DNA of 64,000 nucleotides from Bacteroidota bacterium (lineage in GTDB: Bacteria; Bacteroidota; Ignavibacteria; Kapaibacteriales; NICIL-2), in contig JAIBAE010000005.1 in assembly GCA_019695345.1 (NCBI GenBank), positions 9,186-73,185 on the forward strand, in the 5' to 3' direction. Below the pieces are notes generated by a model. It had not been told where the DNA came from, ran no database searches, and worked only from the letters and a program-made list of their open reading frames with translations. The position numbers and the translations under genes were made by a program. The first letter of the stretch is position 1. Every line of letters begins with the position of its first letter. Below, piece after piece: positions 4,150-60,848 of the stretch.

Positions 4150-4238
4150 GCTTGGGCAAAGCTGAGATTCTTTCCTGCAACGTGAGATTGTGCTATGCAC
4201 ATCGTTTGGTGCAGTCCCGCGATAGCAAAAAAAAATGG
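4150..4238. repeat. Family A element, right half (internal CTTTCCTGCAACG motif plus terminal GGTGCAGTCCCGCGATAGCAAAAAAAAA).
   Basis: Terminal motif matches family consensus GGTGCCGTCNGGCGATAGCAAAA. Its A-run is the T-tract of the adjacent minus-strand terminator. Confidence 0.5.
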
Positions 4239-4262
4239 ACTACACTTGTTAGTATAGTCCAT
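4226..4262 (-). terminator. Intrinsic terminator of the minus-strand lipoprotein gene 4305-6626.
   Basis: Hairpin ATGGACTA-cacttgttagta-TAGTCCAT; on the minus strand it is followed by TTTTTTTTT. Confidence 0.6.
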
Positions 4263-4304
4263 TTGTGTGAACACGTGGGGGATCAATCCACTGAACGTTG
4301 TTTA

Positions 4305-58180: not shown

Positions 58181-60640
58181 ATGTACAGATATGCTATACT
58201 ATGGTGCCTACTTCTATACATTTTGGTATCGTTACCTTTATACTCGCAAACAGGTACGTTATCGTGGCAAGAGCAAACCCGCTTTAGTACTGCCACACCA
58301 AATGCTTTCAGGTATGGTTATCATACCTTTGGTAATGTGGCTATGATGAATGCAAACAACTCATTTGATATGATGGCTACATTTGCCACACGCCCAACAA
58401 CATCACCGTTACCCGGCATGTGGGGGATGAGTATGATGTTTCCATCGGGTATTTTACCTTTTGCACAAGGGCTTGGTTTTATCCGCACAGGATATGATTC
58501 TTTGGCTGTTGTTGATTGGCGTTATGCTATTGCGTTTGGTGGTAAATCGGGTGGTATTGGTATTGGCTATGGCTGGAGCACCGGCGATGACACATTATTT
58601 AAACGTAGCGGACAACTTACGTTTTCGTTTATGCAACGTAATAACGATTTGTCTTCTACAGGGTACACACGTATACAACCTTTACGCGATTTTGCAATTG
58701 GCGATAATGTTTTTGAACTTTCAATTCGTCCGCTTAGTAACTACCGTTTAACATTGTATGGCGATGTTGCTTACTACGATAGAAATCCGTTACCAAATAC
58801 AGATTCATCACGCCTTCGTTATAGTGTTGGTGGAATTATAGAACCTATTAACGGTTTGCGTATTAATGGAAGATACTTTAGCGATAAGCGTCTTTCCGTT
58901 GGAGTTGATATTGGACTTGGAGCACTTGGTTTTGCGTTTCATCAACATAACAATTCAAGCACCACAGAATACAATACCTATACACTACACTTGGGCGGCG
59001 ATGATAGAAGCATTACCTCGGCTATGTCATCTCCGCACCGCTATGTAAACATGTCGCTTCTCGGAGGAATAAAGTATCAACGCTACCAATTGTTTGATAA
59101 CAGCCGAACACTGCTCGAAACACTTGAGCAACTTGAAGAAATCCGTAACGATAATACAGTGTATGGCGTTGTACTAAACTGCTCCGGCATGAACATCGCG
59201 GATGAAATGATGTGGGAGCTTCGCGAACACTTACAGCTTATCCACAAAGCCGGGAAACAGGTTGTGATTTATATTGACCGTGTTGACCTAAGCGACTACT
59301 ACTTTGCGTCGGTTGCATCAAAAATTGTATTAGACCCGGTTGGCTCTATTTACCTTGGCGGTTATGCCTCCGGAAGAACATACATGAAACGCACTTTAGA
59401 AAAAATTGGAGTTGGGTACGATGAACTCCGTTTCTTTAAATACAAATCTGCCGCCGAGGGTTTTGCGCGTACAGATATGAGCGAAGGCGAACGTGAACAA
59501 CGCACCAAACTATTACAAGACCGTTACGATTTGGCAAGTAGCGGAATTGCATCGGCACGCAAGCTATCTAAACAAATGTTTGATTCGTTACTCGATGCTA
59601 AAATGATGTTACTCCCCGAAGAAGCTATTAAACTTGGCTTTGCCGATACCTTAGCTCGCTTTGATGATCTATCAGAAGTAGTTAAAAAGATTGACCCTGA
59701 GGCTATGATGAGTTCAATGCGGTTTGTTGGTAGCAACCGTGAAGTTGGCGATGAACGTTGGGGTAATGATGAATCGATTGCTGTAATCTATGCCATTGGC
59801 GCTTGCTCTATGGATGGCGGAATAAATGCGCGCTCATTAGTTCACGATGTAGAAAGTGCTGCTAACAATCCAGCTATCAAAGCAATTGTATTACGCGTGG
59901 ATTCTCCCGGAGGCGACCCACTTGCGTCCGATTTGATTGCAAAAGCATTACTAACTGCAAAGAAGAAAAAGAAACCGGTTATTGTATCACAAGGTGTTGT
60001 AGCAGGCTCAGGGGGTTACTGGCTCTCAATGAATGCCGATGTTATTGTTGCTGCACCTAACACAATCACCGGCTCTATCGGAGTTATCTCATCGTTCTTC
60101 TATACAAAGTGGCTTGCCGATACAGCCGGACTTAATTTCGATGTAGTAAAGATTGGTAAATTCTCCGATATAGGTTTAGGACCTGACTTCATGGGCTTGG
60201 CTTCTATACCCGCACGAGGTTATACAACCGAAGAACGCACTCAGCGCGAGCAAGATATACGCGCAATGTATAAAGATTTTGTTGCTCGTGTGGCATCGGG
60301 AAGAAACAAGGATACATCGGTAATTGCAAACATTGCACAAGGCAGAGTTTGGTCTGGCACCGACGGTAAAAACATTGGTTTGGTAGATGAAATTGGTGGC
60401 TTGGCAGATGCAATAAACATTGCAAAACAAAAGGCAGGAATTCAAGGTAAAGCAAACATCATCGAGTTACCCGCGCAACGCTTAATTGACTTTAATCAGT
60501 TTATGCCAAAACTCATTGGTGTTTCGGTTCCACTTGTTCAGCAAAACCCGATGTTAGATTTATTCAAATTCCGTTTGGAAAACAATGGCAAACCTATGGT
60601 GATGATGCCATTGGAATGGGATGAAGAAATAACTAAATAA
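58181..60640 (+). CDS. sppA: Signal peptide peptidase SppA (S49, tandem 67K-type domains) with an extra ~290-aa N-terminal beta-barrel-like domain.
   Basis: Two S49 units (...VVLNCSGMNIADE...; ...AIGACSMDGG...SPGGDPLASD...SQGVVAGSGGYWL...). The N-terminal 290 aa has a signal peptide and alternating aromatic/Gly beta-strand patterns, absent from E. coli SppA (618 aa). Confidence 0.8.
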   Translation: MYRYAILWCLLLYILVSLPLYSQTGTLSWQEQTRFSTATPNAFRYGYHTFGNVAMMNANNSFDMMATFATRPTTSPLPGMWGMSMMFPSGILPFAQGLGFIRTGYDSLAVVDWRYAIAFGGKSGGIGIGYGWSTGDDTLFKRSGQLTFSFMQRNNDLSSTGYTRIQPLRDFAIGDNVFELSIRPLSNYRLTLYGDVAYYDRNPLPNTDSSRLRYSVGGIIEPINGLRINGRYFSDKRLSVGVDIGLGALGFAFHQHNNSSTTEYNTYTLHLGGDDRSITSAMSSPHRYVNMSLLGGIKYQRYQLFDNSRTLLETLEQLEEIRNDNTVYGVVLNCSGMNIADEMMWELREHLQLIHKAGKQVVIYIDRVDLSDYYFASVASKIVLDPVGSIYLGGYASGRTYMKRTLEKIGVGYDELRFFKYKSAAEGFARTDMSEGEREQRTKLLQDRYDLASSGIASARKLSKQMFDSLLDAKMMLLPEEAIKLGFADTLARFDDLSEVVKKIDPEAMMSSMRFVGSNREVGDERWGNDESIAVIYAIGACSMDGGINARSLVHDVESAANNPAIKAIVLRVDSPGGDPLASDLIAKALLTAKKKKKPVIVSQGVVAGSGGYWLSMNADVIVAAPNTITGSIGVISSFFYTKWLADTAGLNFDVVKIGKFSDIGLGPDFMGLASIPARGYTTEERTQREQDIRAMYKDFVARVASGRNKDTSVIANIAQGRVWSGTDGKNIGLVDEIGGLADAINIAKQKAGIQGKANIIELPAQRLIDFNQFMPKLIGVSVPLVQQNPMLDLFKFRLENNGKPMVMMPLEWDEEITK

Positions 60641-60810
60641 TTTTCTGCTAACGCAAGCCGCACCAAGCGTTGTACATACTTACACCTTGCATTGCGGGAT
60701 AGAACAATCCATCAACAAACACCGTTTATCGTAGAACTACGATTACTTCCGGCACGATGAGAGTGTTTCTTGAGTTTAGCTTGCTGCCGTCCGGCGATAG
60801 CAAATAAAAA
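60641..60810. repeat. Family A element, complete copy (~170 bp) starting immediately after the sppA stop.
   Basis: Left TTTTCTGCTAACGCAAGCCGCACCAAGCG; internal TTGCATTGCGGGATAGAACAATCC; right GCTGCCGTCCGGCGATAGCAAATAAAAAA (60782-60810). Confidence 0.65.
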
Positions 60811-60848
60811 ACCTCCTGATACATAACGTAACAGGAGGTTTTATTTTT
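60809..60848. terminator. Bidirectional intrinsic terminator between sppA and groEL.
   Basis: AAAAAA CCTCCTG-atacataacgtaa-CAGGAGG TTTTATTTTTAT. Confidence 0.75.

Follow-up and report, generated by a model that had tools for sequence, protein, structure and literature searches.

Our analysis of a 64-kb window of contig JAIBAE010000005.1 (the whole stretch of 64,000 nucleotides, called the window below) revealed a previously undescribed, lineage-specific family of small, non-coding palindromic repeats of uncultured Kapabacteria, named Family A, whose copies lie close to stop codons and to terminator hairpins. Going by the source names of identical proteins, the organism is an uncultured member of Candidatus Kapabacteria / Kapaibacterium. 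The arrangement is probably one of tolerance: Family A would be a selfish palindromic repeat that persists where its insertion is harmless, and its adjacency to stop codons and terminators would arise mainly in this way in a compact genome. The evidence comes from the anatomy of the repeat unit, from an unrelated repeat which occupies the same niche and from comparison with relatives, in which predicted terminators and their U-tracts are shown to exist without the element.

Family A was detected by repeat finding, with an nhmmer profile and with a covariance model (R1) built from the units. Repeat finding and nhmmer gave 17 loci in the window, in which R1 recognises 25 units, arranged as 8 inverted doublets and 9 singles. 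They account for about one third of the intergenic DNA (~2.5 kb of 7.6 kb), range in size from 77 to 235 nt and contain no plausible open reading frame (ORF). The terminal motif GGTGCGGTCnGGCGATAGCAAA has 9 matches in the window at three mismatches or fewer and 0 in shuffled sequence. No window match was obtained in Rfam 15 at gathering thresholds, permissive E-value searches matching only the adjoining terminator hairpin, and a tRNA search of the window gave none. Inspection of the element ends for a Bacteroidetes-type promoter (TAnnTTTG) gave no exact match. A pattern scan of genome contigs returned, among the matches listed (at least 23), single chance matches in unrelated phyla.

The unit is ~77-95 nt long and is found either alone or in inverted doublets of 170-235 bp. 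From the outside inwards, it is made of an edge weakly rich in T; a mini-hairpin, TGC-TAnC-GCA, swapped in 3 copies for GGGC-TKCC-GCCC or GCGC-TTCC-GCGC; and a stem of 4-6 bp, in which C[C/G/T]GC(A) pairs ~35 nt inward with (T)GC[G/C/A]G. The loop of ~30 nt closed by this stem is C/A-rich and G-poor (11% G, 28% C). Further inward are GGGA-AGAAC and then often TTATCG, and the outer thirds have more C than G on the strand read inwards. Terminal inverted repeats of ~20 nt (TGCTAnCGC-N5-6-GCWCC) are present at both ends of the 8 doublets. Doublet orientation is mixed, five lying one way and three the other, the latter including the ortholog in a sister species (L107). Each scorable doublet combines one CCGCA-type and one CGGCA-type unit, and because its arms carry different stem variants, the local stems are perfect while long-range pairing is mismatched.

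Some readings of these features were tried and rejected. A uniform plus-strand or replication-linked orientation of all copies is contradicted by pairwise comparisons and by the mixture of CCGCA and CGGCA types. The variable n of GCTAnCGC is not a conserved mismatch or flip-flop marker, this position being unconstrained (A, T or C) and free to differ from one ortholog to another. Family A is not an intrinsic terminator of its own, as its closing stem is followed by A's and not by U's on either strand. Finally, the C-terminus of the polyprenyl synthase does not derive from the element, since homologs align through the last residues.

The core stem pairs 25:70, 26:69, 27:68 and 28:67 are present in all 29 aligned units, pair 26:69 being CG in 14, GC in 11, UA in 3 and UG in 1, and none of 500 shuffles reached the observed covariation. 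Orthologs are separated by at least one compensatory change, CCGC:GCGG in the window corresponding to GCGCA:TGCGC in L107. Whole copies fold only moderately better than shuffled ones (z -2.0 to -4.6). The perfectly covarying stem, the compensatory change, the joining of two unit types with perfect local stems and the C over G bias of loops and outer thirds would all suit a conserved single-strand structure bound by a protein: on DNA, a domesticated enzyme of the HUH/RAYT type, or else an RNA-binding or termination factor whose target would be the C-rich, G-poor loop, the part of a doublet that would be transcribed first from either direction. We nevertheless hold such a function to be very unlikely: a master doublet whose two arms differed could have passed on much of the covariation; the scarcity of G in the loops seems to go back to (CAA)n-rich source copies such as those of the putative phage contig described below; single units favour neither orientation with respect to transcription; motif positions diverge by 3.7% between strains; and no candidate protein was identified.

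The Family A copies of the window and the hairpins associated with them are the following (doublets and bidirectional hairpins are given without strand):
589-664, minus strand: Family A single, a weaker match, in the spacer upstream of gene 764-2662 (R1 35.1 bits; nhmmer).
2730-2756: bidirectional terminator hairpin in a convergent spacer, followed by TTAATTC and a Family A core (two-strand terminator scan; -12.1/-15.2 kcal/mol).
2758-2834, plus strand: Family A single, outer end 7 nt from hairpin 2730-2756, inner end reaching the stop codon (2832-2834) of minus-strand gene 2832-4070 (R1 57.1 bits).
4158-4233, minus strand: Family A single, downstream of the terminator of gene 4305-6626 and upstream of gene 2832-4070 (R1 64.7 bits).
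4233-4264, minus strand: intrinsic terminator of gene 4305-6626, a 14-bp stem with a T-run leading into the TGCTATCGC core (terminator scan; -18 kcal/mol, z -7.1).
8547-8742: Family A doublet filling the spacer from the adhesin stop (8743-8745) to the start of gene 7799-8521 (R1 60.8 and 41.2 bits; fold z -4.6).
13754-13949: Family A doublet from the NUDIX stop (13954-13956) to the adhesin upstream region (R1 50.3 and 56.1 bits; nhmmer 133.8 bits).
25097-25281: Family A doublet filling the co-directional spacer 25096-25302 (R1 56.2 and 70.2 bits; fold z -3.5).
28715-28894: Family A doublet in a divergent (promoter) spacer with no nearby stop codon (R1 47.0 and 26.8 bits).
31147-31226, minus strand: Family A single between plus-strand genes 30554-31138 and 31255-32304 (R1 48.0 bits).
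34897-34976, plus strand: Family A single with the variant terminal hairpin GGGC-TGCC-GCCC, beginning 2 nt past the stop codon 34892-34894, inner end adjoining a terminator (R1 51.9 bits).
34978-35018: bidirectional terminator hairpin of the convergent spacer 34895-35046 (-17.5 kcal/mol, z -7.8).
37974-38143, minus strand: Family A copy with a clear unit of variant terminus (38066-38143) and a degenerate rest, outer end 2 nt from the stop codon 38142-38144 (R1 50.6 bits; nhmmer).
43969-44064, plus strand: Family A single extending from a Family B copy to the permease start codon (44067), the orthologous site being conserved in L107 (R1 59.7 bits).
46739-46922: Family A doublet from the aspartate kinase stop (46733-46735) to the terminator, orthologous to L107 3020-3201 (R1 66.4 and 56.8 bits).
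46917-46959: bidirectional terminator with a core stem ~90% conserved in L107 (-20/-25.4 kcal/mol, z -7.1/-9.4).
51410-51644: Family A doublet in the divergent spacer between the phosphoenolpyruvate carboxykinase (PEPCK) gene and a flavin mononucleotide (FMN)-dehydrogenase gene, left unit conserved in L107 (R1 55.4 and 53.4 bits).
53758-53834, minus strand: Family A single, inner end directly past the polyprenyl synthase stop (53764-53766), outer end followed by AATAAAAAA and then the hairpin (R1 61.9 bits).
53836-53864: terminator hairpin common to the polyprenyl synthase (plus strand) and rhodanese (minus strand) genes (terminator scan; -17.1/-13 kcal/mol).
55303-55379, plus strand: Family A single with the variant terminus GCGC-TTCC-GCGC (R1 56.5 bits).
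60640-60808: Family A doublet from the sppA stop (60638-60640) to the terminator shared with groEL, with an ortholog in a sister-species contig, L112 (R1 61.0 and 59.0 bits).
60807-60846: bidirectional terminator of groEL and sppA, its stem CCTCCTG/CAGGAGG being kept in L112 (-18.7/-18.8 kcal/mol).
62947-63124: Family A doublet in the divergent spacer upstream of groES, with an ortholog at L112 571-749 (R1 46.5 and 32.4 bits).

A first-pass annotation of this DNA had drawn attention to five copies flush with stop codons, and both these loci and the names given to the flanking genes are right (a type IX secretion system adhesin-like protein, a NUDIX protein, an amino-acid kinase, S49/SppA and a polyprenyl synthase), Family A ending 0-10 nt from the stop codon at all five. 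From the stop codon to the conserved core (TGCTAnCGC or GCGnTAGCA) there are 6 nt after the adhesin gene, 10 after NUDIX, 9 after aspartate kinase and 5 after sppA, while the stop of the polyprenyl synthase gene is followed immediately by a single (half) unit. Additional stop-flush copies are found at 2832, 34894 and 38142 and at L114:4019. The earlier impression that the arrangement is non-random is borne out: 9 copies lie within 6 nt of a stop codon, against 2.6-3.7 expected when each copy is slid uniformly within its own spacer (P ~2e-4 to 2e-3). Also confirmed were the four hairpins said to abut the element (4233-4264, 46925-46955, 53836-53864 and 60812-60842), each of which is at an outer element end and strong on both strands (-13 to -25 kcal/mol, z -5.4 to -9.4). 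A fifth, at 2730-2756, adjoins an outer end as well and a sixth, at 34978-35018, an inner end. These adjoining hairpins fit intrinsic (Rho-independent) terminators, with a GC stem-loop and a U-tract downstream of the stop codon (-12 to -25 kcal/mol). A separate, strong terminator-like hairpin is carried by the doublet 8547-8742 itself on the minus strand (8691-8716, 11 pairs followed by T8), 26 nt past the adhesin stop, where the loop and inner stem of the unit would be.

Such a layout raises the possibility of a module in the 3' untranslated region (3' UTR) that the host selects, the element being kept because its long hairpin stabilises the mRNA 3' end, modulates translation termination or completes the U-tract of the opposing terminator, much as REP/BIME elements do in E. 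coli. The excess of copies near stop codons, the five hairpins directly adjoining outer ends, the retention of all five orthologous sites examined in the sister species and the conservation of termini and stem despite randomised loops are in its favour, as is the report in PMC12306157, citing its reference 17, that ribosomes stall and translation falls where a repetitive extragenic palindromic (REP) sequence lies no more than 15 nt from a stop codon. We judge this explanation unlikely on account of the origin of the U-tract, the contexts in which copies occur and the behaviour of orthologous copies.

With regard to the U-tract, the suggestion that the A/T-rich terminus of the element supplies it is unsupported, the terminators predating the element and carrying their own T-run. 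Between the GC part of the stem and the TGCTA core there is a T-rich tract of 8-13 nt in 7 of 7 hairpin-adjacent cases (5 in the window, 2 in the sister species), the spacing in the window being 8, 9, 9, 9 and 11 nt. Downstream of the aspartate kinase gene, the A-tract 46917-46925 pairs base for base with the T-tract 46951-46959 on the element-free far side. The groEL terminator of the sister species reads CAGGAGG-T8-GTTTA-TGCTAACGC, the core coming only after GTTTA. A hairpin with a T-run also follows groEL in four relatives (L109, L110, L111 and L120) which have GroEL 93-94% identical and no Family A, and an A-tract, a hairpin and a T-tract without any element follow the aspartate kinase gene of an outgroup (L117). 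Since the outgroups free of Family A keep both hairpin and T-run, and since the far-side T-tract pairs with the A-tract, the predicted U-tract is part of the terminator itself. The share of the element is limited to its last 2-3 weakly conserved T/A, because the 8-13 nt tract precedes the core; of the 19 termini that are not at a terminator, 16 have T at position -2. The hairpin sequences themselves differ from locus to locus.

Examination of the spacers gave a similar picture. Family A is present in 17 of the 47 spacers of the window, comprising 5 of 7 convergent, 3 of 7 divergent and 9 of 33 co-directional ones. Its proposed location between stop codon and terminator is correct for the 5 copies in convergent spacers and fails elsewhere, where copies are downstream of terminators, in divergent promoter spacers (3 copies) or inside operons (the ccmB-permease and infA-rpmJ spacers). 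The order stop-element-hairpin is confined in the window to the five convergent spacers with Family A, and it is a forced one: where a convergent spacer has a single bidirectional hairpin, any base outside the hairpin necessarily falls between it and a stop codon. In the two co-directional spacers with a hairpin (at 4158-4233 and at the groEL-proximal copy of the sister species) the element is downstream of the terminator. Seen from the groEL side, the doublet 60640-60808 of the window is downstream of its terminator as well. The earlier proposal of transcription as 3' UTR upstream of a terminator accordingly needs to be divided: from their geometry, we infer that the five convergent-spacer copies are co-transcribed as 3' UTR of one gene ahead of the shared bidirectional terminator, whereas copy 4158-4233 lies downstream of a terminator and is therefore not in such a 3' UTR. 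Any effect of the element on mRNA would probably be minor or incidental. Relative to transcription, the units lie in mixed orientation, about half of the singles being sense and the rest antisense.

The remaining two convergent spacers hold an unrelated repeat, Family B, between stop codon and hairpin, so that 7 of 7 convergent spacers carry a repeat. The Family B copies are:
242-302, minus strand
21304-21370
42568-42601
43894-43966
49465-49508, minus strand
49554-49620
58038-58089

Family B is ~65-70 nt long (GACCGGGTTGCGGCGC...TTGCTTCGGCA) and lies 11-17 nt past the stop codon at four sites. Its orthologous site in L107 is ~80-85% conserved, much above Family A, for which reason Family B may have a structure or function of its own. 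The occupation of one niche by two unrelated repeats indicates a generic pattern, in a very compact genome where repeat-free spacers measure ~5-60 nt. Variable distance to the stop codon, the presence of Family B in the niche, mixed orientation and the fast divergence of the elements leave the idea of a selected arrangement unsupported. Together with the copies in divergent promoter spacers, in operons and downstream of terminators, the same observations count against a host-selected 3'-UTR module.

Comparison with relatives bears directly on the order of events. In the sister species, whose aspartate kinase and GroEL are 76% and 96% identical to those of the window, Family A is present at 5 of 5 orthologous sites examined. 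Orthologous units are barely more alike than paralogous ones (75% vs 72% identity in motif columns, 45% vs 39% in loops), so these are old insertions with saturated interiors. After the aspartate kinase gene, the terminator hairpin of the window is ~90% conserved in the sister species; from stop codon to core there are 9 nt in the window and 25 nt in the sister species, a lack of conservation which further weakens the case for a 3'-UTR module. In the outgroup L117, the ccmB-permease spacer measures 2 nt against 187 nt in the window, and between aspartate kinase and the gene convergent with it there are 107 nt against 240 nt. The comparison thus shows empty sites of the ancestral type, which is evidence of insertion, and the contrast of filled and empty sites shows that the terminators came first. 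Another outgroup, L119, has no convergent rhodanese neighbour and so provides no second empty site.

Covariance-model searches did not find Family A in L109-L111 or L120. Of the weak matches outside the Family A clade, the one in L110 was inspected and is not Family A, and those in L111, L117 and L120 score 10-16 bits. A polyprenyl synthase search of metagenome contigs gave relatives of at most 49% identity, none with Family A. Among the relatives compared, the family is thus confined to a narrow Kapabacteria clade, in which L114 carries 2 doublets. Between strains 97.9% identical, divergence is 5.3% in the elements, 1.9% in coding DNA and 1.4% in other intergenic DNA, a rate of change above that of other intergenic DNA which again disfavours selection by the host for a 3'-UTR role. 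Within the elements, motif positions diverge by 3.7% and the rest by 6.1%, which is not a significant difference.

At least 11 Family A units are also carried by a 51.6-kb contig of IMG/VR (IMGVR_UViG_3300033075_001822; L121, L123 and L124), which is classed as viral and has a GC content of 39%, small ORFs and matches to PHROGs for 3 of 10 ORFs. Its units are mostly single with (CAA)n-rich loops, three of them start 0-3 nt past stop codons, and one doublet has a terminator-like hairpin between its units. This contig could be a phage of the host that has the repeat too or acts as a vector for it, or else a genomic island that was wrongly classified. The presence of Family A on a putative phage suggests past mobility, with the single unit as the inserting module. 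In view of the covarying stem, the C/A-rich loop, the doublets of mixed type, the retention at 5 of 5 sites and these phage-shared copies, some room is left for the units to be more than selfish DNA in decay, namely a maintained single-strand structural module used by the host or by a domesticated enzyme, which we think unlikely. Such a module might act as a bidirectional transcript boundary or insulator, as a site where a protein lands within 3' UTRs or between cistrons, or as the site recognised by a hypothetical HUH-type mobilisation system of Kapabacteria.

Adjacency could also reflect the landing site and not survival, if the insertion machinery favoured A/T-rich tracts or hairpin DNA. 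Hairpin DNA is recognised by some insertion sequences and by class C group II introns. In most of the 19 non-terminator termini, the two bases before the core are T and then T/A, T-runs are beside 9 of 24 termini against a background of 8%, and the narrow stem-to-core spacing and the three phage-contig units just past stop codons are in keeping with a preference of this kind. On the other hand, only 5 of the 24 exact termini adjoin hairpins, either the outer or the inner end can face the hairpin (34978 and the L123 doublet), and the stop-to-core distance of 2-10 nt comes with no common flanking word and no target-site duplication. Moreover, the T-run enrichment falls to 5 of 24 once the TT of the element is discounted, all but one of these being at a terminator hairpin. 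We regard a target-site preference as unlikely to be the explanation.

According to the tolerated-insertion reading that we favour, Family A would have spread in the ancestor of this species and its sister species, after their split from the relatives with 93-94% identical GroEL, presumably through mobilisation by an enzyme. As the genome is very compact, with native spacers of ~5-60 nt, room for a surviving copy would be limited to the handful of dispensable bases that separate a stop codon from whatever functional signal comes next. In convergent spacers this signal would be a bidirectional terminator that was already there, and in operons the promoter or start region of the following gene. 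The outcome would be a copy flush with both the stop codon and the A/T tract belonging to the terminator.

Several observations weigh against this scheme. The flanks of the 24 exact termini show no consistent target-site duplication (TA or AAATAA), a TA pair being present in a minority; such duplications may have been erased by age. No transposase or parent insertion sequence was found in the 64-kb window or in 8.5 kb beyond it. No presence/absence polymorphism of copies was seen among strains 97.9-99.7% identical, and recent mobility in the chromosome is therefore unproven. Termini and covarying stem persist although the loop sequence is randomised, which implies some constraint or homogenisation beyond a purely junk model. 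Stop proximity exceeds the uniform null, and the non-element DNA left between stop codon and hairpin is 3-18 nt, compared with typically 16-67 nt from stop codon to hairpin elsewhere in the window; these findings could reflect target preference or selection instead of tolerance followed by deletion. The sample, ~100 kb of lineage DNA with no transposase-like gene in it, is small.

The likeness to REP/BIME elements that had been noted earlier is apt as a description, Family A being a dispersed extragenic palindromic repeat. Like the REP/BIME/REPIN elements of Enterobacteria and Pseudomonas, it occurs as single copies and inverted doublets (8 in the window and 2 in L114, recalling REPINs) and is concentrated past stop codons and between convergent genes, where it would be co-transcribed with flanking genes. 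Stop-codon proximity is documented for REPs (PMC12306157). It differs from them by its unit of 77-95 nt with a mini-hairpin of 3-4 bp, a stem of 4-6 bp and a ~30-nt loop, where REPs are GC-rich hairpins of 20-40 nt. Its core, GCTAnCGC, has no GTAG/CGTC tag, GTAG being confined to a minority of copies in which n = C; its sequence is not similar to theirs, and no RAYT gene was seen in the lineage DNA read. [quoted passage not shown] Family A resembles the ERIC/Correia type in its size (100-240 bp), non-coding nature, terminal inverted repeats and many intergenic copies. It has the terminal inverted repeats, small dispersed non-coding copies and filled versus empty sites of a MITE, but neither a detectable target-site duplication nor a known parent insertion sequence; its arms are distinct unit types with their own internal stems, stand-alone singles are common, and the clade is narrow. 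A bias towards convergent 3' ends is shared with SPRITE of Streptococcus pneumoniae, in which the terminator-like hairpin is within the repeat, in contrast to the hairpins at Family A, which are unique, locus-specific, older and independently conserved. The presumed persistence of Family A mainly where insertion is tolerated would likewise match the REP and MITE elements of other bacteria. Family A is best filed as a new lineage-restricted family, MITE/REPIN-like in kind.

It adds a well-delimited repeat family to the Kapabacteria, a poorly studied uncultured lineage related to Bacteroidota, and offers a clean case of compaction and purifying selection making a repeat look "designed", while opening no new class of mechanism. 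Besides being common to a putative phage, Family A marks a synteny breakpoint and breaks short-read assemblies of metagenome-assembled genomes (MAGs), and R1 can be used for its annotation. At the position corresponding to window 60640-60808, the sister species (L112 2899-2994) retains the groEL-proximal unit alone, followed by a different, co-directional gene in place of convergent sppA, so the synteny breakpoint coincides with the element. Short-read MAG contigs end in or next to Family A in L001 (GCA_016788765.1, contig JAEUSN010000744) and in the P0130 contig (1,098 nt), and one such contig stops 50 nt past the aspartate kinase stop; Family A copies evidently fragment assemblies of this lineage.

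Other features of the window were noted beside these repeats. Upstream of PEPCK, on the minus strand, ~80 nt of non-coding DNA (51325-51405) are ~95% identical between the window and L107, in contrast to the aspartate kinase protein (76% identical) and to the diverged Family A copy next to it; this segment may be a conserved element of the PEPCK promoter or 5' UTR. Upstream of groES, the site 62896-62922 (TTAGCAGTC-N9-GAGTGCTAA) matches the consensus of CIRCE (controlling inverted repeat of chaperone expression), the HrcA operator (TTAGCACTC-N9-GAGTGCTAA), and its appearance of a hairpin with a T-run is more likely that of an operator than of a terminator. Finally, gene 764-2662 contains coding tandem repeats of ~66-69 nt (1491-2154; Asp-rich, GATACCGATGGCGATGG...) and ORF 42776-43117 a 141-nt duplication (42848-43104), both of which are ordinary repeat proteins unrelated to Family A.

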